A stretch of DNA of 64,000 nucleotides, from IMG/VR virus record IMGVR_UViG_3300042905_004373, positions 1 to 64,000 of that record. The stretch is one strand, 5' to 3'. Below, piece by piece: positions 5,189 through 50,300 of this stretch. Made by a program: the position numbers and the translations under genes. The number at the start of each line of letters is the position of its first letter. Positions within the stretch are counted from its first letter, which is position 1. Source of the DNA: a virus. Below the pieces are notes generated by a model. That model had not been told where the DNA came from, ran no database searches, and saw only the letters and a program-made list of their open reading frames with translations.

Positions 5189-6217
5189 ATGAAGACTTTT
5201 AGAGAGTTTTTAGAAATATCAGAAAAATATTACGAACCAGATGAACCCTTACCATCAGGAAAGACTCCTTATGGTAAGGCGACTTCTTCGTATTATAGAC
5301 AAAAAGGTGAATTTAAGAGAGATCCAACTAGAACATCGGATCAAGCTTTTAGAATTGCAAGACAAGGTAGTAGAAGAAGAAATGAAGTCAGTCGAGGTGC
5401 TAACAATCCTGACTTTGATGCAAGACCTGATAAAACTGGTAAATATGACATAGATGCCGACGCAGGTTATAGTATGAGAGTGCGTGATACTAAGAATGAT
5501 CTTGAGATGAGAATTCGTCAAAAGGATCAGATTGCTCCATCTCAAGGTAATAAACCAGTTTATGATGTTGAGTGGTATAATCAGTCGGGAAAAAGAAGAC
5601 ATAATCCTGGTGAAGCAAGATCTGTTGCAAGAAATGTTGCAGATATGTGGAAGAATCAAGTTGCTCCACGTATTCCAAGTAACTCAATTTTAACAAACTT
5701 CCCCATCAGTAACGATACTAGTGAGCGTAATACAAGATCAAAATTATACTCTAAGATTGCTGGATTTGGCAAACCGGGAATGCAAGGAAGGCAATATGCC
5801 AATGTTGGTCGCAATCCATCACCAAGACAAGCGGCAAAGGGTGCTCAGCGCATTACACCACTTTCTGGAAATCTTGATCCAAAATGGGCAAGTAGGGATG
5901 AATTGGTTGATATGGACGCTAAAAGAATGCATTTACCTAGAGACAGTCGAATTAAATTGGATAAAGAATTTGGTAAACCAAGACAAATTGCACCAGCAAA
6001 ACCATCTAGACCTTCACAGACTAAAGCATTGAATGCATTAAAGTCAACTCCAAAAACCAAGGCACCATCTTTACCAAAACCTCCTACAGTAAAACCATCT
6101 GCAATTTCTAAAGTACCAAGAATTAAATTAAGAGGATCTGGAAAGGCAGCACTTGCTGGTGCAGCATTAACTGGTGCAGCTGCCTTAATTAACTCATTGC
6201 GATCCAAAAAAAAATAA
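5189..6217 (+). CDS. internal-protein-like highly basic protein with CTS-like N-terminus (MKTFREFLEISE)
   Basis: N-terminus matches T4 IP capsid-targeting sequence MKTYQEFIAE; I-S-E site fits gp21 protease L/I-x-E rule; extremely R/K/S/P-rich 342 aa. Confidence 0.7.
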   Translation: MKTFREFLEISEKYYEPDEPLPSGKTPYGKATSSYYRQKGEFKRDPTRTSDQAFRIARQGSRRRNEVSRGANNPDFDARPDKTGKYDIDADAGYSMRVRDTKNDLEMRIRQKDQIAPSQGNKPVYDVEWYNQSGKRRHNPGEARSVARNVADMWKNQVAPRIPSNSILTNFPISNDTSERNTRSKLYSKIAGFGKPGMQGRQYANVGRNPSPRQAAKGAQRITPLSGNLDPKWASRDELVDMDAKRMHLPRDSRIKLDKEFGKPRQIAPAKPSRPSQTKALNALKSTPKTKAPSLPKPPTVKPSAISKVPRIKLRGSGKAALAGAALTGAAALINSLRSKKK

Positions 6218-6872: not shown

Positions 6873-7697
6873 GTGAAAACATTTCAAGAGTTTCTTGAGG
6901 AAAGTGCCCTTGCAAGATTGGCACTTCGGGGTATAAGATCTGCATCAAGAGTTGCAAGAACTGCTGATGGTGGAAGAAGAGTTACATCAGCAGCAAGAGC
7001 AACAAGAAATGTAAGATCAAGAGTAGTAGAACCAAAAGGAATGCCCGAAACAGGTACAACAAGATACTTTGATCGTAAATTAGGTAATAGCGATCTTGCA
7101 GCATTTAAAAAAGCAAATTTTAGAACAAGTCGATCTGACGCTAGAGATTATGACAGAACCAGACCACGGTCTTACAGTTATAAATCAACACCATCAGGAG
7201 AACCCTCTTTTTATACAACAATTGTTTCAAAATATCCGAATCAAGCGGCATATGCACAGAGACAATTGCCAGATAAAAAGTCTTATGGTTTCAATGCAAG
7301 AACACAACAAAGTGGATTTAAGGTAACTCCATCAAGAGAAAGAGCATTCTTTGCAAGTCAGTTAAGAAAACAACTGGGAGGAACAAGAACTCCTAAACAA
7401 GTTGCAGATATTGAAATTGGAACAAAATCAGATTATTATAGAAAAAATGATCCGACAGATCTGATCGGAAGAGGTAAAGAATTTGTTCAAACACTAAAAG
7501 ATGTTCCACAAAGACTTGCAACATCGAATGTGAAACCAGGTGATAAAGTCACTGCTCATCCAGCAGCAGTGATGCCAGGTGAAACAAATAAAGTAATGGG
7601 AAGAAAAAAAAGAGCAGATCTTTATAAGAGGATTGCAGGAAATAGGATGACAAAAATGAATCCTGTGACTCAGGCACTTGTAGGTACAATGCAATGA
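6873..7697 (+). CDS. internal-protein-like basic protein, paralog B (MKTFQEFLEES, GTG start)
   Basis: CTS-like N-terminus; shares 52-nt identical stretch and C-terminal similarity with 7694..8476. Confidence 0.7.
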   Translation: MKTFQEFLEESALARLALRGIRSASRVARTADGGRRVTSAARATRNVRSRVVEPKGMPETGTTRYFDRKLGNSDLAAFKKANFRTSRSDARDYDRTRPRSYSYKSTPSGEPSFYTTIVSKYPNQAAYAQRQLPDKKSYGFNARTQQSGFKVTPSRERAFFASQLRKQLGGTRTPKQVADIEIGTKSDYYRKNDPTDLIGRGKEFVQTLKDVPQRLATSNVKPGDKVTAHPAAVMPGETNKVMGRKKRADLYKRIAGNRMTKMNPVTQALVGTMQ

Positions 7698-8476
7698 AGA
7701 CATTTCAAGAGTTTAACGAAAGTGCTGCTATTGCAAGAGGTGCCTTAAAATTACTTAGATCAGCATCCAGAGCAGGTAAAGTCGCAAGAACCGCTGATGG
7801 TGGAAGAAGAGTTACATCAGCAGCAAGAGCAACAAGAAATGTAAAATCAAAAGCAGTTCCTCCTCGTGGTCCAGGTGAAAATACATGGGATAGACTAGAT
7901 GCTAGAAGAAGTATTTCAGATAAAGTAGTACTAAAAAAGGCAGGATTCAAGAGACGTGATCCTAACGAACAACCTAAAGAAACTGAAGCATGGGCATCAC
8001 CTCATCATTCCACTATGGTCCGCACTTATAAAAATCAAAGTGATTACGTTATAGATCAAGTACCACATAAAAATCTTGCATCTGGAAGAGCAACAAGAAA
8101 AGTAAGATCAACTGCATCTATAGTAAGACACGCAAAAGCATTAAGAAAGCAGTTAGGTGGTGATCGTACATCAAAACCAGTACATGATGTTGCAATTCTA
8201 AGTGATAGATCTTATGCTAAAAATGACCCAGAAGATTTGATCTCAAGAGGTAGAAGTTTCAGGAAAGAAGTTGGTGCCGTACCTAGTGCATTATGGAAAG
8301 CAGGTGCAAACCCAGGTGATAAAGTTACGTCAGAACCTTCAGGAATTATGAGTGGTGAAGACATAATAAAAGGAAAAGAAAAAAGAGACAAGATCTATAC
8401 GAAGGTATTGAAAGCAAAGATGAATCCAAAGACTGGTAAGACGATGGGTACATATAGAGATATGGATAATAACTAA
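7694..8476 (+). CDS. internal-protein-like basic protein, paralog C (MKTFQEFNES)
   Basis: ATGA overlap with paralog B; clear paralogy (ARTADGGRRVTSAARATRNV...; NDP.DLI.RG..F). Confidence 0.7.
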   Translation: MKTFQEFNESAAIARGALKLLRSASRAGKVARTADGGRRVTSAARATRNVKSKAVPPRGPGENTWDRLDARRSISDKVVLKKAGFKRRDPNEQPKETEAWASPHHSTMVRTYKNQSDYVIDQVPHKNLASGRATRKVRSTASIVRHAKALRKQLGGDRTSKPVHDVAILSDRSYAKNDPEDLISRGRSFRKEVGAVPSALWKAGANPGDKVTSEPSGIMSGEDIIKGKEKRDKIYTKVLKAKMNPKTGKTMGTYRDMDNN

Positions 8477-8506: not shown

Positions 8507-8632
8507 ATGAAAAACTTTCAGCAATTTCAAGAAAGTGCTGCTATTGCAAGAGGTGCCTTAAAATTACTTAGATCAGCATCCAGAGCAGGTAAAGTCGCAA
8601 GAACTGCTGATGGTGGAGATGTCAAGAAGTAA
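8507..8632 (+). pseudogene. truncated 41-aa copy of internal-protein paralog C (MKNFQQFQESAAIARGALKLLRSASRAGKVARTADGG...)
   Basis: ~100 nt near-identical to 7713..7810, then cut off by class-A cassette at 8641. Confidence 0.5.
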
Positions 8633-8640
8633 GTAGGACA

Positions 8641-8695
8641 CCTGAACAACTGGCACACAGGGCACTTCACAGGTGCTCTTTCTTGTCTTATAATA
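8641..8695 (+). promoter_or_regulatory. Class-A cassette (CCTGAACAACTGGCACACAGGGCAC ... TTTCTTGTCTTATAAT)
   Basis: Consensus copy. Confidence 0.5.
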
Positions 8696-8717
8696 CTCTC
8701 ATACGCAAAGGACTCAA

Positions 8718-9449
8718 ATGTTCCAATTCGCAGAAGTCGGTGGTGCAGTCCGAGACAAGTTTCTTGGTGTAGATTCCAAGGATGTTGATTTCGTTGCAAT
8801 CCCGATAAATCCAAAGATGTTCGCAAATGCCGATGAGGCATTTGCTACCTTAGTGAATGTTTTGAAAGTTGATGGATTTGAGGTTTTTCTAGAAACTCCT
8901 GAGTTCTTCACTGTTCGGGCACAAGTTCCAACGTGGCATCCTGTGAGGAAAAGAACTACTGTTGCTGACTTTGTTCTGGCACGGAAAGATGGTCCGAGTA
9001 GTGATGGTCGTCGTCCTGATTTTGTTCTTCCCGGAACCCTGATGGATGACCTGCAACGACGGGATTTTACCGTGAATGCGATGGCAATTCTGGATGGGGA
9101 ACTGGTGGATCCTTTCGGTGGTCGTGAAGACCTTGAGAATAATCTTCTTCGGTTTGTGGGTAATCCTACTGACCGAATTGCAGAAGATGGTCTGAGGGTT
9201 ATGAGGGCACTGCGGTTTCACATTACCAAAGGGTTTAATATTGAAGGACAAACTTGGGATGCAGTCAATAGCGATTTTGCTGCTGAAATGCTGAACAAGG
9301 TTTCGGTTGAACGTATCCGTGAGGAACTTGAAAAAATGTTTCTTGCAAATACCGTTGCTACTATGGAGACCCTCAGTGATGTGAGGCGTAAAATGAAAAA
9401 TGCCATCTTCCGTGATGGTCTGCGTCTGATGCCCACTCTGAAAAAGTAA
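8718..9449 (+). CDS. tRNA nucleotidyltransferase / poly(A) polymerase family head-domain protein (CCA-adding-enzyme-like, 243 aa)
   Basis: GGAVRD (GGxVRD) and RRDFTVNA (RRDFTxNA) class-II nucleotidyltransferase motifs; DPFGG..DL; RALRF. Confidence 0.75.
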   Translation: MFQFAEVGGAVRDKFLGVDSKDVDFVAIPINPKMFANADEAFATLVNVLKVDGFEVFLETPEFFTVRAQVPTWHPVRKRTTVADFVLARKDGPSSDGRRPDFVLPGTLMDDLQRRDFTVNAMAILDGELVDPFGGREDLENNLLRFVGNPTDRIAEDGLRVMRALRFHITKGFNIEGQTWDAVNSDFAAEMLNKVSVERIREELEKMFLANTVATMETLSDVRRKMKNAIFRDGLRLMPTLKK

Positions 9450-9910: not shown

Positions 9911-10150
9911 ATGAAACTACATTACGAAATCAAACACCCTAAAGAGTTGGAAACTATGAAAGAAAATGGTGATATTCAAGATTATTCTCTTTATGATAAT
10001 GATTTTGGGGAGACTCTTGAAATTACATTTCCTTCAGGTAAAACTCTAGTAGTTCATAACTGGGGTGCAGAATACAACTGTTATCTTGATTTTACACAAA
10101 CTCCAGATGAACCTCAAAGAACATCTAAAACAACGGCACCTAAACCTTGA
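9911..10150 (+). CDS. hypothetical protein
   Basis: 79 aa; C-terminus ...DEPQRTSKTTAPKP repeats 9806 ORF N-terminus. Confidence 0.5.
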   Translation: MKLHYEIKHPKELETMKENGDIQDYSLYDNDFGETLEITFPSGKTLVVHNWGAEYNCYLDFTQTPDEPQRTSKTTAPKP

Positions 10151-10220
10151 ACTACATCGTCCATTTTTAGATGAAGAACTCAACATCGCCACTTTTTATT
10201 GCTGGAACCCATCAGGACAA

Positions 10221-10637
10221 ATGGTAGGATACCAACAATACAACCCAAATGGTGATAAGAAAATCTTTAATTCTAAATTGGAGGGCAAATACTATACCTA
10301 CAGAAACAAGAATCACCAAACAGTAGTTGTATGGGGCACCGAAAGTCTCTATCAGTCAGATGGTGTTGTCTATCTGACTGAAGGAATCTTTGATGCTGCC
10401 CGTATGACAAATATGGGGCAATCTGCTCTTGCTGCTATGGCAAATAATCCTCCAAAGGATTATAGAAACTGGTTGCAAATGCTAAATCGTCCTGTGGTTG
10501 CTGTTTGTGATAATGATGATGCAGGAAGAAAACTTGCCAAGTTCGGGCATTATGTAGAAGTAGTTCCTGATGGTAAAGATTTGGGTGATGCTCCTGATGA
10601 TTATGTCAGGTATCTACTCACCAAGTATGCCACCTGA
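10221..10637 (+). CDS. stand-alone TOPRIM-domain protein (DnaG-type)
   Basis: LTEGIFDA (EGxxD) and CDNDDAGRK (DxDxAG) TOPRIM motifs; first in-frame ATG after 9911 ORF stop (track ORF 10065 opens earlier, overlapping). Confidence 0.6.
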   Translation: MVGYQQYNPNGDKKIFNSKLEGKYYTYRNKNHQTVVVWGTESLYQSDGVVYLTEGIFDAARMTNMGQSALAAMANNPPKDYRNWLQMLNRPVVAVCDNDDAGRKLAKFGHYVEVVPDGKDLGDAPDDYVRYLLTKYAT

Positions 10638-10687
10638 CGAACTGGCACACTGAGGCACTCCAGACTCCTCTGGATGCCCTATAATAG
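10633..10687 (+). promoter_or_regulatory. Class-A cassette (CCTGACGAACTGGCACACTGAGGCAC ... 10-bp bulged hairpin ... CCCTATAAT)
   Basis: Consensus copy; near-identical duplicate at 11501..11560. Confidence 0.5.
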
Positions 10688-10715
10688 TCTCATACACACA
10701 AAGGAGAGTTTCCAA

Positions 10716-11198
10716 ATGGGTCTTGATATGTATCTCTATGCCGAAAAGAGATTTGGTTTTTGTAGTTGGGATAAAGAAGGAAAGGATAATGAAAAGTTTG
10801 ATAAACTTGTAGAGTTTGCAGAACTGAGTGATGTTGTGGATAAACAAATTGGGTCTGTTTCCGCATATGTCAAAGTTGAAGTTGGGTATTGGCGAAAGGT
10901 AAATGCCATTCACGAATACTTTGTGGGTAACTGTGCTAATGGTGTAGATGAATGTCAAGAGATTGAAGTTTATCGAGAAACTTTGGTTGCTCTGAAAGAT
11001 ATTTGTGGTCAACTGAGTTTGACTAAAGATGCAGAACAAGCAAAAGAACTTCTTTGCCCTAAAGGTGGTTTCTTCTTCGGAAGCACTGAGATTAATGAAT
11101 ACTACTTTGATAATATTGAATACACTTATGAACTTCTGACTAAGATTCTGGAAAATACACCAGAAGATTATCACTTCATCTATCGAGCATCCTGGTAG
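10716..11198 (+). CDS. hypothetical protein
   Basis: 160 aa from ATG with AAAGGAGAG SD after cassette. Confidence 0.6.
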   Translation: MGLDMYLYAEKRFGFCSWDKEGKDNEKFDKLVEFAELSDVVDKQIGSVSAYVKVEVGYWRKVNAIHEYFVGNCANGVDECQEIEVYRETLVALKDICGQLSLTKDAEQAKELLCPKGGFFFGSTEINEYYFDNIEYTYELLTKILENTPEDYHFIYRASW

Positions 11199-11508: not shown

Positions 11509-11560
11509 CGAACTGGCACACTGAGGCACTCCAGACTCCTCTGGATGCCCTATAATAGTC
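11501..11560 (+). promoter_or_regulatory. Class-A cassette (near-identical copy of 10633..10687)
   Basis: CTTGACGAACTGGCACACTGAGGCACTCCAGACTCCTCTGGATGCCCTATAAT. Confidence 0.5.
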
Positions 11561-11581
11561 TCATACACACAGAAACCTCCT

Positions 11582-11794
11582 ATGAAAATCAGCACTCAAA
11601 TTACTATCCAAGATCATAATGGTTTTTGGTATCAGGTAGAAGATATTCATACTGATGTGGGTTGTCCTGGTTGCACTATTTCCTATTGGGAAGAAGATAG
11701 TGAGCGAGGTGATAAACGACATTCATTCATTTGTATGAATAAGGAAGAAGCACTTGCTATTGCTGATGCCATCTACAAACTCTTTAAGAACTGA
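11582..11794 (+). CDS. hypothetical protein
   Basis: 70 aa. Confidence 0.55.
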   Translation: MKISTQITIQDHNGFWYQVEDIHTDVGCPGCTISYWEEDSERGDKRHSFICMNKEEALAIADAIYKLFKN

Positions 11795-12774: not shown

Positions 12775-12824
12775 ACAACTGGCACACAGGGCACTTCACA
12801 GGGGAACCAGATGCCTTATAATTG
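12766..12824 (+). promoter_or_regulatory. Class-A cassette
   Basis: GACACCTGAACAACTGGCACACAGGGCAC...GATGCCTTATAAT. Confidence 0.5.
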
Positions 12825-12845
12825 ATTCATAAGCAACCCAACCAA

Positions 12846-13430
12846 ATGAACATCAACGGATACGAAATCAAACCTGGTGCTAACCTTGTGGGTGCTTACC
12901 TTGGGTGTGCTTACCTTGTGGGTGCTAACCTTAGCGGTGCTCACCTTGTGAGTGCTAACCTTGTGAGTGCTAACCTTAGGGGTACTAACCTTAGTGGTGC
13001 CGACCTTGAGGGTGCCGACCTTAGTTGTGCCGCCCTTAGGGGTGCCGACCTTTATGGTGCCATCCTTAGGGGTGCCTACCTTAGGGATGCCAACCTTAGT
13101 TGTGCCGCCCTTAGGGGTGCTGACCTTAGGGGTGCTGACCTTAGGGGTGCTTACCTTGAGGGTGCCATCCTTAGGGGTGCTGACCTTTATCGTGCCGACC
13201 TTAGGGGTGCCGACCTTAGGGGTGCCTACCTTTATCGTGCCGACCTTAGGTATGCCAACCTTGAGGGTGCCAACCTTGAGGGTGCAAATGTAACAGAAAC
13301 CATTCTTGATGGGAAAGAAGAACCTTCTCAAGATACCACTTCACTTTCTGAAAAAGTTAAAGAACTTGAGGAAGAAAACAAGAAACTTAAGGATACACTT
13401 AAGGCAATTCTGGCACTTCTGGACACCTGA
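12846..13430 (+). CDS. pentapeptide-repeat protein (28 tandem A[D/N]LxG repeats) with C-terminal coiled coil
   Basis: GANLV GAYLG ... GADLR GAYLE ...; 15-bp DNA periodicity; C-terminal KVKELEEENKKLKDTLKAILALL; start at ATG 12846 rather than track TTG 12822. Confidence 0.8.
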   Translation: MNINGYEIKPGANLVGAYLGCAYLVGANLSGAHLVSANLVSANLRGTNLSGADLEGADLSCAALRGADLYGAILRGAYLRDANLSCAALRGADLRGADLRGAYLEGAILRGADLYRADLRGADLRGAYLYRADLRYANLEGANLEGANVTETILDGKEEPSQDTTSLSEKVKELEEENKKLKDTLKAILALLDT

Positions 13431-13480
13431 ACAACTGGCACACAGGGCACTTCACAGGGGAACCAGATGCCTTATAATAC
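13424..13480 (+). promoter_or_regulatory. Class-A cassette (exact copy of 12766 box)
   Basis: GACACCTGAACAACTGGCACACAGGGCACTTCACAGGGGAACCAGATGCCTTATAAT. Confidence 0.5.
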
Positions 13481-31012: not shown

Positions 31013-34000
31013 ATGGTAAATTCAAAATTTGATTCTAGAGTTAAAATTCAACAAATTATTGATAGTCAGATTCCAGAATTTATTTTAGATGAAAATCCAA
31101 AAGCAGCGGAATTTCTAAAGCAATATTATATTTCACAAGAATATCAAGGTGGCCCAATTGATATTGTTGAAAATTTAGATCAATATTTAAAATTAGATAA
31201 TTTACTTCCAGAAGTTATTGTAGGATTTACGAGTTTAACATCTGGTATTTCTTCATCTTCTACAAATATTGTCGTTAATTCAACCAAAGGATTCCCTTCG
31301 AAATATGGGTTGTTGAAAATAGATGATGAAATTATTACTTATACTGGAATAACTACGAATACCTTTACTGGTTGCATTCGTGGATTTAGTGGAATTACAA
31401 ATTATCATAAGAATTTGCAATATGAAGAATTGGTTTTTAGCGAATCAGTATCAGAACCTCATAATTTTGAATCAAAGGTAGAAAATCTTAGTTCCTTATT
31501 TTTAAAAGAATTTTATAAAAAAATTAAATTTACTTTAACTCCAGGATTAGAAGAATTAAATTTCAATGAAAATTTAAATGTAGGCAATTTTATAAAAGAA
31601 TCAAAGAGTTTGTATGAAACAAAAGGAACTCCAGAATCTTTTAGAATATTATTTAATGTTCTTTTTGGAGAAACTCCAAAAATAATTAACCTAGAACAAT
31701 TTTTAATTAAGTCATCCGATTCAGATTATATAAGAAGAAATGTAGCAGTAATTAAAGCAATTTCCGGAGACCCAACTAAATTAACTGGACAAACAATTAA
31801 AAAATCTACCGATGAGGGAACCAGTGCTTCAGTTTCTGAAGTAGAAACAATCACAAGAAAAAGTAAGACATACTATAAACTTAACTTTTTTGTTGGATAT
31901 GATGATAGTTATCCAAATATTACTGGCACGTTTTCAGTCACTCCAAATACAAAAGTAATTGATAATGTAATATTATCTTCTACTAAAACTGGAGTAGTTA
32001 CAGTAGATTCTACAATTGGATTTGCGGAATCTGGAAGTTTTTTTTATGAGGACTATGAGGTATTTTATTCCAGAAAAACAATCAACCAATTTTTAGGTTG
32101 TTATATTAATTCTAATGAATCAGTCAATGTACTCAAAAAATCTTTATTGATTTCAAATGAAACTTATTATGGATATGAAAATGGCGATTTAGAAAAAAAA
32201 GTAGAATTTATAATCACTGGAGTTATATCTGATATTTTTGTAAGTGATAATTCTTACAATTTTATTGAAGGAGATGAAATATATCCTCAAAATTTAGGTG
32301 AGATTATTTCGCAAGGAAAAAGTAATAAGCAAATTTTTGCAAATAGTTGGATTTACAATACAAGTTCAAGATATCAAGTAGATAATTTTTCTGGATTTAC
32401 AATTACTATAAAATCAAAAATAGATTCTGTAAGTATTTCAGTTGGTGACACAATTGAAATACTTGATAGAAATACTGAAAATGTAATTTCTACTGCAATT
32501 ATTACTGGTATTGATCTTAACGCCAATCAAATTACAATAAATCAGAATATTAATTTATCTGGAAATTATGATATTAGAAGAATACTTAAAAAGGCAAATT
32601 CGCCAATAGTTCCAATCGAATTTGGAAATGATAAGATTACATCCGATATTCAAAATGTATACAATGAAAATGATGCATATATGTATGTTGCATCTAATTC
32701 TTTACCATCCTATCAAATACAAAAAAATGTATTTGAATATACTATAACCAAACTGAGTGGAAAGAATGACGATGATGAGTATAGTATCATTGAGTTTAAT
32801 GATGTAATTTCATTCATAACCGGAGATAAGGTATTATACTACACAGATGAAAATTCCACAATTGTAGGTTTGGTGGAAGGTCCTTATTTTGTGGAGGTTT
32901 TATCGGACAAAAAATCAATTAAACTTCATTTAAGTTCCTCTACAATTGGTAGTAGTGATTTTGTAACATTTGGACAATTTTCGAATGGTTCAATCGTAGG
33001 AAATCATAAGGTTATACTTTATTCTCAAAAATCTAAAACTATTTCTCCACAAAAATTACTAAAAAAGTTTCCATTAGATAGAAAAACTTCAGATAATAAA
33101 ATTTACGAAACAATTCCAGGATCAATTGGAATGTTAAAAAATGGAGTTGAAATATACAATTATAAAACAAATGATAAAATTTATTATGGACCTTTAGAAA
33201 ATGTAGACGTTTTAAGTGGTGGAAATAATTATGATGTAATAAATCCACCAGTCTTAACAATATCTACAGGGTCTGCTGTTCTTTATCCAGTGATAACTGG
33301 TTCCGTTAAAAAAATATTTGTAGATCCTCAAGAATTTGATATTGATGTAAATATATCAATACAATTAAGTGGTGGAAATGGATCAAATTCTTCATTTAAA
33401 CCAATTTTTGAAAAGTATGCGAGAGAAATTGAATTTGATGCTAGATCTATTTTAAATGGTGGTGGAATAGATTCTGTAGATGAAGTTATAGCATTCAAAG
33501 AAAATCACAATCTAATTAATGGACAACCACTTGTTTATAATAACAACAACTTTAATTCTATTGGAATAGGAACTTTTAAGGGTTCTAATTTGGATCAAGG
33601 TAAAACATTAGTAAAAAATGCAATTTATTATACAGAAGTAATTAATGATAAAACAATTCGACTATATCAAAATTTTTCAGACTATTCATCAGGAATCAAT
33701 ACTGTAGGATTCACTACTATTGGAAATTCTGGAACTCATAAGTTCAAAACTGAAGTAAAAAATAGATTAGTTGATATACAAGTTATTTCCGAAGGAAGTG
33801 GTTATTCAAATAGAAAAATTAGAGTATCTCCATCTGGAATTTCAACTTTTGATCATACTATAAATTTTAAAAATCATGGGTTTTCTGATGGAGAAGTAGT
33901 CTCATATGAATATCAAACTTCCAATATTTCTGGATTAACAACATCAAATTCATATAAAGTTCTAAAACTAAATTCTGATAATTTTAGGATTTGTGATATT

Positions 34001-37000
34001 GGAATAGGTGGAACTGATAATTCCAATTTTACTAGAAAAAATTATGTAAAATTTTCATCTACTGGTTCGGGATATCAGTTTTTTAGTTACCCAAAAATTA
34101 TCTTATCAGTTGATTATACTTCTGTTGGTCTTGGGAGTACTCAAGTCAGAGGTTTAATTAATGCAGTTCCATTAATTAGAGGATCTATTGAAGATGTTTA
34201 TATCTATGAAAAAGGATCAGATTACGGATCTCTTATTTTAAATAATCACCAAAGACCTCAAATTACTATTAAAAATGGAAGAGAAGCAGAATTAAAACCA
34301 GTTATTATAAATGGAAGAATTACATCAGTTCAAGTTCTATATGGAGGTTTTGAATATTACTCAACTCCAGATTTACTTGTTTTGGGTAATGGAGTTGGTG
34401 CATCATTAAGACCAGTAGTTACAAATAATAAAATTTCAAGCATTATAGTTATTAACTCTGGGGCAGGATATGATGAGAATACTACCTCTATAATTGCAAT
34501 TTCTGCAGGTCAAAATGCAAAACTTCAACCAAATATAAGATCATTAACATTAAATAATTCTTATAAGTATGGTATTCAAAATGCATTATATAGAGATCCT
34601 GCTAGTGAAATTTTAGTAGAAACTGAGAATAATCTCAAATATGCAATTGTAGGATATACCACACATATTAAAGATGCCGGAAATGCCTCAACACATTCGG
34701 ATATTATTGGATGGGCATATGATGGAAATCCAATTTATGGGCCTTATGGTTATTCTGACCCATATTCATCTTCATCAGTTAAAGTATTAAGTTCTGGATA
34801 TTCTAAAGTAACTGTTGAAAATAGACCAAATTTCCCAGAAGGATATTTTGTAGAAGATTATGCATTTACTAATGCAGGTGATTTAGATGAATATAATGGA
34901 AGATTTGGTAAGACTAAAGATTTTCCAAATGGAACATATGCTTATTTCACAACTATTGAATCCAATAATGATGGTAACAATATTGGTAAATTTCCATATT
35001 TTATTGGAAACAAATACAGATCTATGAATTTGAATGAAAATTCAAACTTAGATCAATCTTTTAGTTTCAATAGTTCAAATTTAATTAGAAATACTACTCC
35101 ATATAAAGTCAAAGAAGAATATGCCGATAATGATTTTATTGTAGAATCAAATGAAATCATTGAGCAAAAAACTTTAATTGAATCCGTTTCATATGGTAGT
35201 GTTTCAGAATTGAAAATTTTAAATTCTGGTTCTGACTATAAAGTAGGAGATCAAATAAATTTCGAATCCAATGATAGTGGTGGGGGAATTTTAGCAAAAG
35301 TTTCCGAAATAACCGGAAAAGAAATTGAACAAATCGAGACAACTGTAGATTATTACAATGATTCAGTAGTAACTTGGGAAAATGGTAATTCCATAAATGT
35401 ACACATTTACCCATATCATAATCTATCGAATAAAGATATTATCAATATATCAGGAGTATCAACTCAGGTTTCTGTTTTAGATGGATCATATCAAATTGGA
35501 GTAACTTCTTATTTCGCTAAATTAGAAAAGGAAATACCTGCATATTCACTTACTGGAATAGTTACTGACATTTATTTAACATCTATTCCTGAAAATATTT
35601 CTGTAGGAAGTAGTTTTAAAATCAACAATGAACTATTTTCAATTTTAAATATTTACAACAACTATGGAGTTATAAGAGTAAGTAGGGAAACTAGTGGCGG
35701 AATACACACTCAATCATCTTCAATATACTTTCTCCCGGATACATTTACAATAAACAAATTAACAGAATATTTTGATTCTACAGTAAATTCAAAAGTATTT
35801 TTTAATCCAACAAAATCTGTTGGCATTGGTACAATAGTTGGTGTAGGAACAAATGTTAATTATAACATTGGAATTACATCTTATTCAGAATTTATACCGA
35901 CACAAAGTATTTTTATACCAAATCACCGCTTCAAAACAGGTCAAAAAGTAATATTCAAAAAACCAACTGGTGGAGATTCTATTGCTGTATCTGAAACTCC
36001 TACAAGTCTATCTTTCAATATTCTAAGTGGAAGTTCTGAAGTATTGTATGTTATCAATAAGTCATTAGATTATATTGGTATTGTCACTAATGTAGGATTA
36101 ACGACAAATAGTTCTGGTTTATTCTTTAGAAATACTACGTGGAATTCTGGTCATGATAGTTATCAATATTCTATAGAATCAGATTTAAATCAAATTAAAG
36201 TAGATATCAGCAAAATAAAATCTGTAGTATCTGTTTCAACATCTCATAACTTACAGATTGGTGACAAAATATCTTTAAGAGTAAATCCAAATTTAAATGT
36301 TGGTATTGGAACCTCAACATCAGTAAAGATTAAACTTGATCCTCTGATTCAGAAAATAATTATCAATCCTACTCAATTTAGTTCTTCGGGAATAAACACA
36401 ACATCTGATACTATTCTATTAAATTCTCATAGTTTAAATACTGGCGATAAAATTATTTTTAATACACTTGGTTCTATACCTTCAGGAATAACAACTGGTT
36501 GCTATTTTATATACAAAGTAGATAATGATAATATCAAATTATGTGAAACATATTACGATTCAGTGGTTAATCCACCTGAAACATTGAAATTAACCACTCA
36601 GGGAAGTGGAATTCACGAAATTAGTTTAATTAATCCAAAAATAAATCAAATCAAAAATAATAATTTAATTTTTGATTTATCAGATTCTTCTCTGTCTGGA
36701 TACAACTTTAAAATTTACTCAGATAAAGATTTTAAAAAGGAATTTGTTTCAATTGAAAATTCTAATACAAAAGTAGTATCGGGTGTTGGAACTGTTGGAG
36801 TGTCCACAAATGCATCATTGACTATAAATTATAAAGATTTTGTTCCTGAAAAAATTTATTATAATTTAGAAAAATCTGGGTATATTAGTACTGCAGATTC
36901 AGAAGTAAATAATTACTCTGAAATACTGTTTACCGATAGTTTATATTATGGTACTTATAATGTAAGTGGAATTGGAACAACTACTTTTACAATTTCACTA

Positions 37001-40000
37001 AAAAATACTCCAGAGAAATTAAACTATTATCAGTCTGAATGTGATATTTTAAAATATAATACTACATCTAAAACTTCAACTGGAGGAATCAGTAAAATAA
37101 ATCTCTTATCCGGTGGATATGGATATAAATCTTTACCAGATTTTATAGGTTCAAATTCTTTAAATGGAAAAGGTGCATTTATTATTCCATATTCAAATAC
37201 TATTGGAAAAATAACAAAAAGTAGAATTATAAATGAAGGATTTGAATATTCTTCAGATAAAACACTGAGACCAACAGCAGCAATTCCACAAGTTGCTTAT
37301 ATAGCATCATCAAATACTATTGATACGATTGATGTATTAAGTGGTGGTAAAAATTATATTTCACCCCCTGATCTAATTTTAATAGATTCCAGTACTGAAG
37401 AATCTATTAACTCTGGATTTTTAAAAGCAAAGTTAAATGGATCTTCTATTGGTTCAGTAGATATTGAAATACCCCCAAAAGGTTTACCAATTAATCCCGT
37501 TACAATTAAATCAATTAACAATACAAATGGGATAACAATTGATAAAGTTCAAAGTTCTTCTTCAGGAATAGTTACTTGTTTTATCACTACTCCTTTACTT
37601 GGATTTTCAATACAACCATTCCAACCTGGAGATAGGATATTTGTAGAAGGAATAGAAAAAACAAATTCCTCTGGAGATGGATTTAATTCTCCAGATCATG
37701 GATATAATTTTTTTGAAGTTAAAAATTACTATGCATTAAATCCAGACAAAGTAGAATTTGATATATCAGACTTTACAAATAATCCGGGAGTAGCAAAAAC
37801 TATTCAAGAATCAAATGCTTCAATTGTAAATTATAAAAATTATCCAGAATTTAAAGTAATTCAAAAATTCTCTCCTTTTTCTATTGGAGAGCAATTATCT
37901 TCCGATAATGGATTTGGATTTATTTCTAGAAATTTGAAAGTTGTTGATTGTCGAGAAAATGTAATTAGAGTAGTAGGTAGTTATTCTCTATCTATTGGGG
38001 AAAAAATAAGAGGATTGCAATCAGATAATGTAGCAGTTATAGACTCATTATCTTCAACAAATGGAATTTATAATACTAATTCCTTTAATCTTCAAAATTT
38101 TGGATGGGAGAATGATACTGGAAAACTTAGTTATGATACTCAAGTAACTCCAGATAATGATTACTATCAAAATCTTTCATATACGGTAAAAAGCACTAAA
38201 ACTTGGGAAGAGATATCATCCCCAGTATATGATTTATTACATACTAGTGGAACTAAAAATTTTTCAGATACTCAATTTATTGAAAATGCACAATCAGGAA
38301 TAGGAACTGTTGAATCTATTTTATCGTTAGTTAGTATGTTTGTTGAGGAAAATAGAGTAGATACAATTAATAATTTTGATTTAGTTGTTGATGTGGATGT
38401 TATTGGAAATAAATCTAAATTTATAAAATTTGAAAAAGTCAGACTTAGTGATTATATTCTATGTAAAACAAATAGAGTCTTACAAATTGATGATATTAGT
38501 AATGAGTTTTCAAGTTCTAATGACGAAATAGAGAATGTTGCGAATATTTTACCATTGAATTCAGAAAGTGGATATAATAGATTTCTTGTTCAAGTTAAAA
38601 ATATTTTATCTAATGAAATTCAATTTAATGAAATAATCACTTTAAATGATAATGAAAATATTTTTACTTTATCCGTTTCGGAAATTGTAAGTAATAGTAC
38701 TTTAGCAAACATCAGTGGATATGTTACTGAAGATAACAATTTTTATCTAAAATTTGACCCATCTGATCCGTACAATTCAAATTACAATATTAAAATATTA
38801 AGAGATACCTTTACAAGTAAAACTGCAATAGGATCTACTGAAAATTTAAATTGTGTTGATTTAATTGCTCAAAATAAAGTAGTTGCAAGTGGAATAACTA
38901 CCTCAATCATAAGTTTAGATTCTTCCAAATATTCTTCAATCTACTCCAATATTCACATATTAAATACAAATAGTTCTAACATGAACTATGTTCAAATTTA
39001 TCTAGTTCATGATGGAACTGATACTTATATCAGTGAATATTATTTTGACGATGAAAGTTATGAAAGTTATGGATTTATAGGATCTTTTGGAGCATCTTTA
39101 AATGGTGGAATTTTATCCTTAAACTATACAAATACAGAAAATGAAAATATTATAGTAAGATCAAAAAATATTGGATTTGGATCAACTTCTTTAGGAACAG
39201 ATTTCTATAGATTTAAGTTACCTGGGCAAATAGATGGTAATGAGAGAACTGTGGTTTTTGAATCAAACTACAATAATGTATCTTCAGGATCTACAAGTAT
39301 TTTTGTTTTGGATAAAAATTTATTCAATTCAGTAAAATCTACAGTAAAAATTGGTGTAGGACAAACAAGTTCTTTACATCAAATAATGACTGTTTATGAT
39401 GGATCTGATATCTTCATAACTCAATACCCATTCTTATCTGTAGGAAGTACTACAGGAATAGGTTCATTTGGTGCGACCGTAGATTCTACAAATATCATAC
39501 TGAATTTTTATCCAGATCCTTTAATATCTGAAGAAAAAGAAATAATTTCTTTTAACGAATGTTTCTATTCTGATTTGGATCTTGTAAACCTTCCCCCAGA
39601 TTTAGTTTATTCTCCAATCAGACAATCTGTAAGTGCTTCTAAGTTTTATGGCAAAAATTCACCATTTATTGATAAATTAGATTTTGAATCATATTCAAAT
39701 GATATTCCAATATTCATGAAAACTTTTGATCCAATAACAACTATTGATATATCAACTGGAATATGTACAATTCCTAATCATTTCTTCAATACTGGAGAAA
39801 GATTGATTTACAATCCAAAATCTACTTTTATTGGCATAGGTACATCAGCAATAGGAATAGGTGCAACAGAAAACTATGTCGGTATAGTTACAACATTATT
39901 ACCAGAAGTTCTTTATGCAATTAGAATTGATAGTAATACTTTCAGATTAGCAACTAAAAAAGAATATGCTGATCAAGGAATTGGAGTATCTTTTACTTCT

Positions 40001-44371: not shown

Positions 44372-47300
44372 ATGGCCCAAAAAACAAATTTAAATGTAAG
44401 TCCATATTTTGATGATTTTGACTCTGAAAAAAACTTTTATAGAGTTCTTTTTAATCCGGGAAGGCCAGTACAAACAAGAGAACTAAACAATATTCAATCA
44501 ATTTTACAAAATCAAATTGAATCTTTTGGTAGTCACATTTTTAAGGAAGGTTCTGTAGTAATTCCTGGAAATGTCACTTACGATTCTCAATTTTTTGCAG
44601 TTAAGTTAAATTCAACTTCTTTGGGAGTCAATATATCAAATTATATTGAGCAATATGTTGGTAAAAAAATTGAAGGGCAAATATCAGGAATAACTGCTAT
44701 AGTACAAAAGGTTGAAATTCCAAATAATACAAATGATCTAGAATATATTACAATATATGTAAAATACTTAGATTCTGATAATAATTTCACAATAAATCCA
44801 TTTACAGATGGTGAATCTTTAATATCAACTGAAAGTATCCTTTATGGAACTACAACTATTTTTTCAGGAACTCCATTTGCAACATTAATTTCATCAGAAT
44901 CCACATCTACTGGATCTGCAGCATCTATTAATGATGGAGTTTATTTTGTAAGGGGATCTTTTGTAGCGATAACAAAAGAAACTATAATTTTAGATTATTA
45001 TTCAAATATTCCAACTTATCGCATAGGATTGAAAGTATCTGAAGAAATAATAACAGCCAAAGAAGATCCTTCATTGTATGATAATGCAAAAGGATTCACA
45101 AATTATGCTGCCCCTGGTGCAGATAGATTTAAAATATCTTTATCATTAACAAAAAAAAGCATAGACAGTGTAGAAACTGATACTGATTTTATTGAACTTC
45201 TGAGAGTTGAAAATGGAGAAATAAAAAAGGTAAGTACAAAAACACAATATTCTCTAATTAGAGATTATCTTGCACAAAGAACTTTTGATGAATCTGGAAA
45301 TTATTCAATAACTCCATTTAAAATATCTTTACACAATTCTTTAAATAATAGACTTGGTAATGATGGATTATTTTTAGAAAATCAAAAAACAGAAGCAGGT
45401 AACACTCCTTCCGATGATTTGATGTGTATAAAGTTATCTCCAGGAAAATCATACGTTAAGGGATATGATATTGAAAAAACAAATACTACTATTTTAGATG
45501 TAGAAAAACCAAGAACAACTCAAAAAGTTGAAAATGTTTCAATTCCATTTGAAATGGGCAATTTGTTGAGGATTAATAATGTAACGGGATCACCAAAACA
45601 AAATTTACCTGTAGAATTACACTCAGTAAGAAGAAGTGCATCGGGAACTCCTTCCTCTTCTACGAAAATTGGGGATGCTAGAGTTTATAATTTTAGAGTT
45701 ACTGATGCTGCGTATAAAGATGAAACTACTAATTGGGATCTATATCTTTATGATATACAGACATATACTGTATTGACTTTGAATCAACCTTTATCAAGTT
45801 CAGAACTACCAACTACATCTTTTGTTAAAGGTAAGAGTAGTGGTGCTAGTGGATTTGCAGTTTCTGCGGGAAATAATACAACAACAGTTACATTAACTCA
45901 AACATCTGGAACATTTATAAAAGGTGAGCAAATTTATATTAATGGCATTGAGTTATATTCTAGATCTATTGTAAATATAGATGTTTATGATGCATCAGAT
46001 ATTAAACAAATTTATCAGTCAACTTCTGTATCTCTATTTGGCGCACCTTTTATAGGAGATTCTGTATTAACTAAAAATTTACCTATAGGATTTAATGCTT
46101 CTGATACTATTAATATTAATTCTTCAGGAACAGTTACTTGCCCAGGAAAGTTTTTTAATTCAATCAAACCTGGTAGTATTATTAGATACCAACCATCATC
46201 AGGATCTTTAGAAAAGTATAATAGAGTATCCAGTGTAAGTTCTACTGGTTCATCAATGACCCTCGTAAGTGTCGCAAATGTTAATGGTATTTGTGATGGG
46301 TCTGTTGGAGTAGCAACAAACATATCATTTAGCATTGGATATCCAACAATTAGAAATAATGAAAAGGGATTTTTATATGCAGAATTACCAAATTCTAATA
46401 TTTCTTCTGTAGATTTGAATGATTCAATTTTAACATTCTGCGCTCAATCTACAAGTTCAAAATCCTCAAATAGTCCTATAGTATTATCTGTATCAGATTT
46501 TCCTCTACCTTCAGGAATATCAACAGCATTATTTCAAAGTTTTGATGAAGAGAGATACTCAGTACATTATAGTGATGGAACCACAGAATCTTTAACACCA
46601 GATAAATTCTCACTTATCAACAATCAAGTTACATTATCAAATTTAACACCAGGGAAAACAACATCAGCAATTAATGCAACATTTATAAAAAATGGTGTTC
46701 AAAGTAAACAAAAACAATTTAATAGAAGTCAAACAATAAATGTAATTTATTCAAAATATCCAGAATCTGGTACTGGAATCAGTACATCAGTAAATGATGG
46801 ATTAATTTATAATCCATATTATGGACTTAGAGTTCAAGATGAAGAAATTTGTCTTAATTATCCAGATGTATCTAAAGTTTTAGCAATTTATGAATCTTTG
46901 GATACAAATAATCCAATTTTAGATTCTCTTTCATTTAGTGTTACATTAAATGTTGGTACAAATGCATTAATTGGGGAAAATATTACAGGTTCTGAAAGTG
47001 GTTGTATTGCTAGAATTGTTACTAAGTTTGGAAATAGTGTAGGTATTATCTATTTAAATTCAAACAGATTTTTAAATAATGAAAATGTAAAATTTAATGA
47101 GAGTAATATAATTGGTGAAATTGATACATTAACTCTAGGAAGTTATACTGATATAACAAATAGATTCAAATTGGAAAAGGGACAAAAAGGGCAATATTAT
47201 GATTACTCAAAAATTATTAGAGCAGAGGGTGAAACATCACCATCAAAAAGATTATTAATTATTTTTGATTATTATAATGTTCCTCAGACAGATAATGGAG

Positions 47301-50300
47301 ATGTTTTCACTGCTCTCAGTTATAAAAAAGAACAGTTTGCTGAAAATGTACCACTTTTAGGTTCGAATAATATAAGAGCAACTGATACTTTGGATTTTAG
47401 ACCAATAGTTCCTGTATTTTCAAGTATTGCATCTTCACCATTCCACTTTACAAACAGAAACTTTGATTCATCAATTAAATTTAATCTTACCTCAAATGAA
47501 AGTAGCATTGTAAGTTACGATTATTATGTGGGTAGAATAGATAAAATTTATTTGGATAAAAATGGAGATTTTATATATTTAAAAGGTTTATCAACTCTTG
47601 ATCCAAAATCCCCAATTAAAACTAATGATGTAATGGAGTTGGCTACCATTACTTTACCACCATATCTTTACAATGTAAAAAATGCTTCTATTTCACTAGT
47701 TGACAATAGAAGATATACTATGAGAGACATTGGATCTATTGAAAACAGGGTGCAAAACCTTGAAAGAGTTACATCCCTTTCTCTACTAGAGTTAAGCACT
47801 CAAACACTACAAATACAAGATTCTGAAGGATTTAATCGATTTAAGACTGGATTTTTTGTTGATGATTTTAAAAATTATGAAAGAATTAATTCAAACTTAT
47901 CCCTGATTGAAGTTGATTCCGATTCTCAAGAATTAACACCTATAGTATCTAGAAATAGTTTAAAGAATTATTTGGCACCACAATTAAGTATAATTGATGA
48001 AGAAATAGATCTTTCATCTAATTATAATTTAGTAGATTCAAATGTTCAAAAAACCGGAACCACAGTAACATTGAAATATGAGTCTAAAAAATGGATTGAA
48101 CAACCACTGGCAACTCAAGTAGAAAATGTAAATCCATTTCATGTAGTATCATATACTGGATCAGTAAAATTATCACCAAATAGGGATAATTGGGTAAGAA
48201 CAATACAATTACCCAATAAGAGTATATCAGTTACAAATAATCTGTTATTAGAAAGAGATCAAGTTTTATTCGAAGAAAGAACTAATGTTGTAAATGTTGC
48301 TAATGTTGAAAGAAGAGGAGAAGTAGAAGTAAGTTCTCCTCAGTTATCTGCATCTCAGAATATTTCAGAAAGTACAAATAGAACTACAACAACATCAAGT
48401 GTAACAAACTTAACTCAAACAAGTCCAGAAGAATTCATGAGATCAAGAAATACTGAATTTAGTATTTCTAATTTGAAACCATATACTCAATACTATCAAT
48501 TTTTAGATGGTAATGGTTCTGTAGACTTTGTTCCAAAACTTGTTGAAATATCAAGCAATAGTTCTTTAAATGATTTTGGTTCTTCATCCACATTCAATGT
48601 TGGTGAGAAAGTTTTAGGATATGATGCAAATAATAATTTGATTATATCCTTTAGAGTTGCCGCATCAAATCACAAGTCTGGTAGTTATAATTTACCATCA
48701 ACAGTATTTGATACCAATCCTTATAATAAAAATGAAAATATTTCAGATGGTTACAGTCCATCATCTAAAGTATTGAATGTAGATACTTATTCATTATCAG
48801 AAGAGGCTCAAGGATTATATTCAGGATTTTTAGTTAAGGGTGCAAAATTAGTTGGGCAGAGTAGTGGTGCTATAGCATATGTTAAAGATCTCAGATTAAT
48901 ATCTGATAATTATGGAGATTTAATAGGAACCTTCTATATTAGAGATCCTCATACAAGTCCTCCCCCAAATGTGAGAATTAATACTGGAAATAAAACTTAT
49001 AAAATTACATCCAGTCCAACAAATGAGACTGCTGCTGCTGGTAGTACAACAATTTCTAGTGGAGAAACTAACTATATTTCAGTTGGAACAATAGAATTTT
49101 ATGAAACTACAATCACAAATACGACCAATGTAACTACTACCAGAACAAGAACAACTACCTTAACAAATACAACAACAGTCACTAATTACTACGATCCCCT
49201 AGCACAATCTTTTAGTGTTGGTGGTAGTCAAACCAGAAATGATGATGAAAATGGAATATTCCTAACATCAGTTGATCTTTATTTCTATAAAAAAGATTCT
49301 GGAACAAATCCATTAACTGTTCAGATAAGAACAGTTGAATTAGGAACTCCAACTAGAACTATTTTAGGAAATTCTGTTACATTGAGACCAGATCAAATTA
49401 ATACCTCAGAAGATTCGAGTGTTGCAACAAAAGTTACATTTGATTATCCAGTATATCTTGATCCTGGATTAGAATATTGTATTGTATTACTTGCTCCAGA
49501 AAGTGTAGAATATGAAGTTTTCATCGCTGAAATGGGCAAGAAAACAATTCAAAGTGCAAATCTCCCAGATTCAGAATCTGTAGTATATACTCAGCAGTTT
49601 GCTCTTGGAAGTCTATTTAAATCTCAAAATGGATCTATTTGGACTGCAAATCAATATCAAGATATGAAATTTAGATTATATAGAGCTGAATTTATTTCTG
49701 ATACTCCATCTACAGTTTATTTCTACAATCCATCATTAGATAGAAGTAATGGATATGTTAAAAATTTACAAACAAATCCAATTACGGTAATTCCTAGAAA
49801 ATTAAAAGTTGGTATTACTACTATAACAGATTCAAACCTAGTACAAATTTTCAATAATGGTAGAAAAATTAGTGAAGGTGGTGTAAGTTCTAAAACTTAT
49901 AACTATGGATATGTTTTCGGTACTGGATGTTCCGTTTCTTCTGTGGGTATTACTACTGGTGGATTTAACTATGTTACATCTTCTCCAGTATCAACATATA
50001 ATATCAATGGAAATGGTTCAGGATTAACTCTTAATATCACTGCAAGTGGTGGACTAATTACCAATGCTACTATTGCAAATCCTGGAAATGGTTATGCAAT
50101 TGGTGATATAGTTGGAATAGTAACTTCTAGTGTTACAAGTTCTAGCGGAAGAGATGCTAGAATAACAATTACCGGAAACAATAATGGAATTGATACATTA
50201 TACTTATCAAATGTTCAGGGAAATTCATTCACTTCAGGAAAAAATTTGGTATATTACGATTCATCGAATACTGCCATTTCTTTAGCATCAACAACAATAG

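Follow-up and report, generated by a model that had tools for sequence, protein, structure and literature searches.

A short class-II tRNA nucleotidyltransferase gene of a cyanomyovirus-like genome segment encodes a head-and-neck catalytic core and probably a minimal CCA-adding enzyme

The gene and its position in the window

The window, that is, the whole stretch of 64,000 nucleotides that was analysed, is a Kyanoviridae-like cyanomyovirus segment with Synechococcus phage B23 as its best GenBank relative. B23 was found by protein-level search, and a megablast search for near-identical DNA among GenBank phages gave no match. On the plus strand, the window carries an open reading frame (ORF) of 243 amino acids (8718–9449), beginning with an ATG at 8718 and closed by a stop codon that ends at 9449. 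Direct reading of the sequence places an AAGGA ribosome-binding site (8708–8712, plus strand) five nucleotides before the ATG. Profile and structure matches identify the product as a short class-II tRNA nucleotidyltransferase that consists of head and neck without body and tail. The gene sits in a long run of small plus-strand ORFs, upstream of very large ORFs of up to 3902 amino acids, which are presumed to be structural genes.

A promoter-like element (8650–8694, plus strand) was identified directly upstream of the gene by a sigma-70-like scan. It is composed of CTGGCACA, a hairpin (8659–8679) and a TATAAT (8689–8694), and can alternatively be read as TTCACA-17-TATAAT (8666–8694) with 11 of 12 consensus matches. 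There are 18 copies of CTGGCACA in the window versus 1.08 expected, and the repeated promoter-like set is restricted to the first 24 kb. The element is kept upstream of the orthologues in the related loci L001, L009, L010, L012 and L013. Nothing usable came from a literature search for a known class of cyanophage promoters with the form CTGGCACA...TATAAT. As a repeated and conserved element, it would fit a co-regulated, possibly early, class of genes. The early region in which the first-pass annotation placed the gene is a possibility consistent with this promoter-like match.

Domain architecture

Membership of the protein in the class-II nucleotidyltransferase and poly(A) polymerase (PAP) family, as read from the letters in the first-pass annotation, is borne out by three kinds of profile and sequence match. 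The head-domain profile search that had been proposed there gave a match to Pfam PF01743 (PolyA_pol head) over residues 7–145, with 65.4 bits against a gathering cut-off of 23 and an E value of 8e-18. The neck profile PF12627 (PolyA_pol_RNAbd) matched residues 172–214 with 30.4 bits against a cut-off of 22. PHROG 24229, annotated as 'tRNA nucleotidyltransferase', was matched with an E value of 3e-45 over profile positions 9–217 of 245. CCA-adding enzymes of the PDB were matched with E values of 1e-26 (6ibp) and 3e-22 (1miv), and all of these matches have ended by query residue 223, near the midpoint of chains of roughly 400 amino acids. The equivalog cut-off was reached by none of nine NCBIfam models, the best being NF009814 with 131.7 bits against 290.

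An AlphaFold model built with 36 family sequences (mean pLDDT 92.5, pTM 0.85) comprises a beta-rich head at about residues 2–130 and then a helical neck at about residues 135–230, with low confidence in the last ten residues or so. The model superposes on the N-terminal 55% or so of solved class-II CCA-adding, A-adding and PAP enzymes, with a TM-score of about 0.70 on the query and of 0.42–0.51 on the CCA-adding, A-adding and PAP targets. When E. coli Cca is aligned with it, the phage protein reaches to about Cca residue 230, where the C-terminal half of Cca begins. A toxin fold of the MenT type was matched only marginally by Foldseek (6y56, E 0.037, probability 0.23, TM 0.21).

The gene product is a complete catalytic core of head and neck in which the body and the tail are missing. 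The earlier claim that the C-terminal tRNA-binding domains are lacking holds for body and tail, by the alignments, the superposition of the model and the TM-scores on the targets. It fails for the neck. The label 'head-only' is wrong because a neck with a nucleotide-templating EDxxR motif is present, as seen from the PF12627 match, motifs C, D and E, and the helical neck of the model.

Conserved motifs and catalytic residues

Conservation was read from the 65 distinct proteins of the family sample, and all coordinates below are on the plus strand. The ORF and the two signatures that had been named for it, GGAVRD (residues 8–13) and RRDFTVNA (residues 114–121), are present in the sequence as claimed, and so are the DxD carboxylates, in the form D22-V-D24. 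Motif A (G8-G-A-V-R-D13 ... D22-V-D24; 8739–8789), which contains two catalytic carboxylates, was aligned to GGAVRD...DVD of 6ibp and 1miv, and G8, G9, R12, D22 and D24 are invariant. D84 (8967–8969), invariant in 65 of 65 members, is predicted to be the third of these carboxylates. It corresponds to chain position 79 of 1miv by gapless extension of the alignment (query 86 = chain 81), and the equivalent residues are Asp99 in TmCCA and Glu74 in AaL (PMC3925840). The catalytic Asp triad of D22, D24 and D84 is therefore intact, being invariant throughout the 65 members.

The BxA motif (R89-K-D91) and the flexible-loop region that follows it (residues 92–110), both as defined in PMC2910056, span 8982–9047 and align to RTESSYSDNRRPDSV of 6ibp. 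The loop region aligns to the loop of Bacillales CCA-adding enzymes, including the conserved RRP, and the spacing from BxA to DxxRRD is 19 residues, compared with 22 in E. coli Cca by the same count. Motif B (RRDFTVNA, residues 114–121; 9057–9080) was aligned to RRDFTINA of 6ibp, with R114, R115, D116 and N120 invariant, and motif C (DPFGGREDL, residues 131–139; 9108–9134) to DPFGGKEDL of the same structure, with D131 and G135 invariant.

Within the neck, motif D (E156-D-G-L-R160-V-M-R-A-L-R-F167, EDGLRVMRALRF; 9183–9218) holds the putative Asp/Arg template for CTP and ATP, a role of this residue pair that is described in PMC3925840. D157, R160, R163, R166 and F167 are invariant. Motif E (ERIREELEKMF, residues 198–208; 9309–9341) fits the pattern ERxxxExxxhh, a discriminator taken from PMC2910056. 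The protein closes with a family-specific C-terminal peptide, FRDGLRLMPTLKK (F..LxPT; 9408–9446), in which F231 is conserved in 63, L237 in 62, P239 in 56 and T240 in 60 of the 65 members. Eight of the C-terminal 30 residues of the phage protein are K or R.

Class-II activity predicted from published discriminators

The four class-II activities can be told apart by published sequence criteria (PMC2910056). According to them, PAPs carry the signature [LIV][LIV]G[RK][RK]Fx[LIV]h[HQL][LIV] in the stretch that separates motif A from the loop, CC-adding enzymes are marked by a flexible-loop deletion, and motif E reads ERxxxExxxhh in CCA- and CC-adding enzymes and sRxxxExxxhh in A-adding enzymes and PAPs (PMC2910056). 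Neither the window protein nor any of the 81 family members carries the PAP signature. A loop deletion was not seen, as the window protein keeps the loop region. The window protein also has E198 and thus the ER type of motif E, which is found in 58 of the 65 distinct members. By these discriminators, the core is predicted to be of the CCA-adding type rather than a PAP, a CC-adding or an A-adding enzyme.

The short form as a viral family

Among the viral loci, 80 of 80 ORFs measure 220–275 amino acids and stop 0–9 codons after the C-terminal peptide or the end of the match. Lengths of 241–243 amino acids are shared by more than 100 clusters with at least 76% identity, and a second clade around Arthrobacter phage Racecar has lengths of 237–318. 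Of representatives clustered at 50%, nearly all of the best 150 are 225–275 amino acids long, with alignments that run through to the C-terminal end of the query. Cellular relatives, searched in the genomes of 185,579 species, reach at most about 50% identity in the best segment and about 45% or less near full length. With few exceptions, the alignment of the best cellular relatives ends at about residue 231. The complete cellular ORFs that were examined (54 of 54) are 330–667 amino acids long, with none below 300. The short architecture is virus-specific in the samples examined, since the best cellular relatives are all long. It had been described as unusual, which is correct in relation to the characterised enzymes only, as the phage family of this short form is large and has been given a PHROG of its own.

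The gene is under purifying selection. Comparison with orthologues gave a pN of 0.09–0.18, a pS of 0.45–0.69 and a dN/dS of 0.05–0.27, with dS near saturation in several pairs. A decayed or truncated pseudogene was considered as well and is ruled out by the length, which is stable across hundreds of clusters, by the invariant catalytic residues and by the dN/dS of 0.05–0.27.

Longer proteins that bear the module were scanned for domain fusions as a clue to function. The scanned set, with lengths of 478–1748 amino acids and without proteins of 612 and 2190 amino acids, mixes unrelated phage domains (GNAT, topoisomerase I, L5 gp82), and these long proteins are probably merged gene calls.

A protein with 100% identity is already present in NCBI, JGI and ENA under the name that gp209 of B23 bears, 'CCA tRNA nucleotidyltransferase'. 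The gene is an ordinary member of a catalogued and annotated phage family, and its identification counts as ordinary annotation because this identical protein and gp209 of B23 are already labelled as CCA-adding enzymes. In the literature searched, with partial coverage of subscription journals, neither a biochemical study of the short class-II architecture nor an account of it as a virus-specific form was found.

Neighbourhood of the gene in related viruses

ORFs lying within 10 kb of the gene were clustered for 80 viral loci on the basis of simple ORF calling. Recurrent neighbours were an RNA ligase (PF09414 and PHA02142; 18 loci), a metallophosphoesterase (15 loci), the HAD domain of 'Swiss Army Knife' RNA-repair proteins (HAD_SAK; 13 loci), a Thg1-like enzyme (11 loci), PNKP (10 loci) and a T4 Rnl1-type ligase (7 loci). 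At least one RNA-repair neighbour (RNA ligase, Rnl1, PNKP, HAD_SAK or Thg1, with the metallophosphoesterase left out of the count) was present at 36 of 81 loci, which are not independent observations because many of the viral loci are near-duplicates and the 81 loci encode 65 distinct proteins.

The loci with such neighbours include those of the closest orthologues. The order at L009, where the protein is 85% identical, is RNA ligase, Rnl1, P-loop kinase and nucleotidyltransferase. Upstream of the nucleotidyltransferase at L010 (81% identical) are genes for Rnl1, a kinase and a PNKP phosphatase and another gene that resembles RNA ligase, with unannotated ORFs between them. Arthrobacter phage Racecar has the order RNA ligase, polynucleotide kinase and nucleotidyltransferase. 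The position of close orthologues beside Rnl1, kinase and phosphatase suggests a shared role in restoring damaged tRNAs. CCA-adding enzymes are among the commonest RNA-repair genes of jumbo phages (PMC7824862).

The window itself does not have these features. No tRNA gene was detected in its 64 kb by ARAGORN, and no Rfam family at gathering thresholds, so the tRNA cluster that the first-pass annotation had proposed to look for is not in the window. Likewise, tblastn gave no match to RNA ligase, PNKP, Thg1 or HAD_SAK genes, the queries being genes of these four kinds without the P-loop kinases that L009 and L010 encode as ORFs of their own, and a second nucleotidyltransferase copy was not found in the window. 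The contextual support consequently comes from the relatives, because the window is without a tRNA gene or repair genes. The role in tRNA 3'-end repair or maintenance that had been put forward earlier is thus backed by the RNA ligase, kinase, phosphatase and tRNA-array context of the relatives and finds no such backing inside the window.

The absence of these genes from the window also bears on an alternative reading. An enzyme with relaxed specificity could add tails to many RNA 3' ends, or add more than three nucleotides (poly(C/A) or CCACCA-like), and perhaps mark host RNAs for decay or remodel the RNA pool. The lack of a tRNA gene and of a repair cassette in the window would agree with such an activity, as would the absence of body and tail, including the elbow anchor. 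However, the PAP signature is missing throughout the family, the CCA type is seen in both the loop and motif E, and the neighbours that recur in relatives are tRNA genes and tRNA-repair enzymes rather than RNA-decay genes. Relaxed tailing is therefore considered unlikely.

In a number of more distant relatives, tRNA arrays enclose or adjoin the gene (L029, L068, L082, L073, L032 and L034). The arrays hold 27 tRNA genes in L029, 24 in L068, 17 in L073, 13 plus a tmRNA in L032 and 9 in L082. At most 4 of the 116 tRNA genes that adjoin family members have an encoded CCA. A single encoded C follows the discriminator in 86 of these 116 genes, as compared with a C background of 20.5%, and the 3'-end convention of ARAGORN was confirmed by a synthetic control. 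B23 has 14 tRNA genes, none of them with a clear encoded CCA.

The frequent single C bears on the possibility that the enzyme, for want of body and tail, is unable to build CCA from scratch and acts as a repair or finishing enzyme alongside that of the host, supplying A76 or C75-A76 to 3' ends of which a part already exists. If the encoded C were kept, only C75-A76 would be left to add to the 86 tRNAs concerned. The flexible loop and the BxA motif for A-addition are retained, and a split into CC- and A-adding enzymes is a known natural solution (PMC2910056, PMC3925840). On the other hand, motif E is the ERxxxE of CCA- and CC-adding enzymes and not the sRxxxE of A-adding enzymes and PAPs. According to Tretbar 2011, as cited in PMC3925840, body and tail block CC addition in A-adding enzymes, so that on this account the loss of both should widen and not narrow the activity. 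Such partial activity appears improbable, if somewhat less so than relaxed tailing.

It is also conceivable that the protein is one component of a bipartite enzyme, the tRNA being bound in trans by another protein of phage or host origin. The missing half is exactly the tRNA-binding half, and an ORF of about 207 amino acids (phrog_14949), the commonest of the neighbours, directly adjoins the nucleotidyltransferase in many distant loci. Yet phrog_14949, which the window lacks, has a mixed alpha/beta look and contains SGFH and DxD-like motifs, in contrast to body and tail, which are all-helical. Neighbours differ almost entirely from locus to locus within the cyanophage clade, and no neighbour cluster occurs in more than 28 of 81 loci, which speaks against a constant partner encoded nearby. 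The partner ORF for body and tail that had been suggested for the window was not found there either: 72 C-terminal halves of full-length enzymes (tblastn) and an HMM made from these halves matched nothing in six frames, a weak negative because body and tail are poorly conserved. A two-part enzyme is the least probable of the alternatives and very unlikely.

Proposed function

The reading preferred here is that the gene encodes an active, minimal class-II CCA-adding or repair enzyme that acts on tRNA 3' ends during infection. A probability of roughly 0.7 is given to this reading. The head would provide the two-metal catalytic centre (D22, D24 and D84), and the protein template formed by the Asp/Arg pair of the neck (D157 and R160) would select CTP and ATP. 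The retained BxA motif and flexible loop would be needed for the switch to A76. During infection, the enzyme would most likely add or restore the 3'-terminal CCA, or its missing parts, on tRNAs. Likely substrates would be tRNAs that the phage transcribes with no CCA, together with tRNAs of the host or the phage that have trimmed or damaged 3' ends.

Recognition of the tRNA would occur through the acceptor end contacting head and neck, possibly aided by the C-terminal F..LxPT peptide. It must rest on contacts of head and neck with the acceptor because the body and tail, which provide the acceptor/T-arm clamp and the elbow anchor, are absent. The substrate, the product (a full CCA or part of it), the independence from a partner protein and the timing of expression are all points that we infer.

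The tail with its elbow anchor is part of the models for tRNA specificity and termination in class-II enzymes (PMC3925840). A further question is whether the protein of 243 amino acids is self-sufficient, with tRNA recognition and the stop after CCA being achieved by head, neck and the C-terminal F..LxPT peptide alone. This is a real possibility, to which we give slightly less than even odds. If it is true, the virus-specific family would represent a minimal natural CCA-adding enzyme of class II, and elbow anchoring would be dispensable for specificity and length control. The conserved, virus-specific short form offers a natural experiment on the means by which class-II enzymes recognise their tRNA and limit addition to three nucleotides, and on whether body and tail are needed for this.

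Recent work has described defences, Cas12a3 being one of them, by which the 3' tails of tRNAs are cut (PMC12851939), and a compact phage CCA-repair enzyme may be a candidate counter-measure against them. The gene would gain in interest only if one of these two roles, CCA addition by a self-sufficient protein that has no tail or the countering of such tRNA-tail defences, were borne out.

Comparison with known systems

The solved class-II enzymes share the fold of head and neck with the phage protein (Foldseek E of about 1e-14, 27–32% identity), and the solved CCA-adding enzymes also share motifs A–E, BxA, the flexible loop with the conserved RRP and the ER-type motif E. They differ in being 377–404 amino acids long and in having a helical body and tail that bind the acceptor/T-arm and the elbow. 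In class-II enzymes, body and tail form a poorly conserved tRNA-binding site, of which the tail anchors the elbow. The phage protein, in contrast, ends near the boundary of neck and body and carries the short conserved F..LxPT peptide instead.

The closest homologue from a cultured phage is gp209 of Synechococcus phage B23 (QGT54824.1, 'CCA tRNA nucleotidyltransferase'), which has 243 amino acids, is 72% identical and is colinear over the full length. It shares the upstream promoter-like element and the location in a small-ORF region of a Kyanoviridae genome, whereas the flanking genes are largely different and only a Toprim-like ORF is common to both. The B23 genome is complete and has its tRNA array about 50 kb away from gp209, whereas the window is limited to 64 kb and is without a tRNA gene. 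More distantly, PHROG 24229 and the clade of Racecar gp185 share the short architecture (237–318 amino acids), the invariant catalytic residues and the C-terminal LxPT. Racecar gp185 differs in being about 40% identical and in lying in an RNA ligase/polynucleotide kinase cluster that is absent from the window.

A functional parallel is found in the tRNA repair of phage T4 by PNKP and Rnl1, since close orthologues of the gene adjoin Rnl1, polynucleotide kinase and phosphatase. The T4 pair reseals breaks in the anticodon loop, whereas the phage nucleotidyltransferase would have its target at the 3' end. For CCA addition, T4 depends on the enzyme of its host.

For the C-terminal peptide, the nematode mitochondrial CCA-adding enzymes of Ascaris and Romanomermis are of relevance, which can gain affinity for tRNA from short elements, namely basic C-terminal extensions or beta-turns (PMC12013499). 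They provide a precedent for the replacement of the elbow contact by a short peptide, although body and tail are kept in these enzymes and it is the tRNA itself that is truncated there.

A repeated promoter-like element

A promoter-like repeat recurs in intergenic positions between 464 and 24054 of the window and consists of CTGGCACA, about 30 nt and (C)TTATAAT. In many copies, the roughly 30-nt middle is a GC hairpin whose sequence varies from copy to copy. Examples are the copies at 465-507, 2897-2936, 8651-8694, 10643-10685, 11514-11556, 12780-12822 and 13436-13478. In the window, CTGGCACA was counted 18 times (16 on the + strand) versus 1.08 expected, and TGGCAC-N25-45-TATAAT 10 times versus 0.26 expected. 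The copies are confined to the small-ORF half, except for a match at 47973, which looks like a chance occurrence. Two giant ORFs of 3902 and 2434 aa (31013-42721 and 44372-51676, + strand) lie in the presumed structural half of the window. The element is also kept 5' of orthologues of the short tRNA nucleotidyltransferase (NTase), and it may mark one temporal gene class. Its TGGCAC is similar to the sigma-54 -24 box, but its spacing does not match.

Some copies are part of local duplications, found at 10643-10720 and 11514-11590. Here, identical 43-nt elements (10643-10685 and 11514-11556) are followed by ORFs (at 10674 and 11242) that have the N-terminus MPYNSLIHTKE in common. Two further copies, identical to each other (12780-12822 and 13436-13478), lie one on each side of a gene for a 202-aa pentapeptide-repeat protein (12822-13430; PF00805, E 5e-48), whose simple repeat also yields long out-of-frame and opposite-strand ORFs.

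Genes neighbouring the nucleotidyltransferase

Upstream of the NTase gene, three paralogous and very basic proteins of 342, 274 and 260 aa are encoded (5189-6217, 6873-7697 and 7694-8476), all of which start with MKTFxEF..ES. The same family is represented just 5' of the NTase promoter by an N-terminal fragment of 41 aa (8507-8632). Neither the three paralogues nor the fragment had a Pfam or PHROG match. Among the 80 viral loci carrying short NTase relatives, the 342-aa protein matched only one (L010) and the 274- and 260-aa proteins had no homologue; Synechococcus phage B23, the closest cultured relative, gave no match to any of the three.

The only neighbour recurring with NTase in the cyanophage clade is a stand-alone Toprim-like ORF of 190 aa (10065-10637), which was found in eight viral loci and as gp216 of B23 (59% identity to the window ORF). 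Its match to phrog_849 ("DNA primase") covers only profile positions 143-327 of 435. Across all viral loci, short NTase genes are most frequently accompanied by phrog_14949, a hypothetical protein of about 207 aa present in 28 loci, often immediately beside NTase and inside RNA-repair cassettes (for example L037 8804-9415, L075 11177-11830 and L086 14960-15631). Its motifs WI(I/V)DID and SGFH recall primase-polymerase or nucleotidyltransferase active sites. phrog_14949 was not found in the window.

Long database proteins with an NTase module

A few of the database proteins P0254-P0312 are very long (478-2190 aa) and contain a short NTase module. A domain scan of the members of 478-1748 aa detected GNAT, topoisomerase I or L5 gp82 domains besides this module. 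Merged gene calls, perhaps made on phages that have recoded a stop codon, are the probable explanation, rather than true NTase fusions.

tRNA 3' ends beside short NTase genes

In tRNA arrays beside short NTase genes (L029, L068, L073, L082, L032 and other viral loci), 86 of 116 phage tRNA genes have a single C after the discriminator, encoding C74 without C75-A76, versus a background C frequency of 20.5%. This excess may reflect a 3'-processing site or a need for CA addition only. In L068, L073 and L082, nearly all tRNA genes have the single-C ending.
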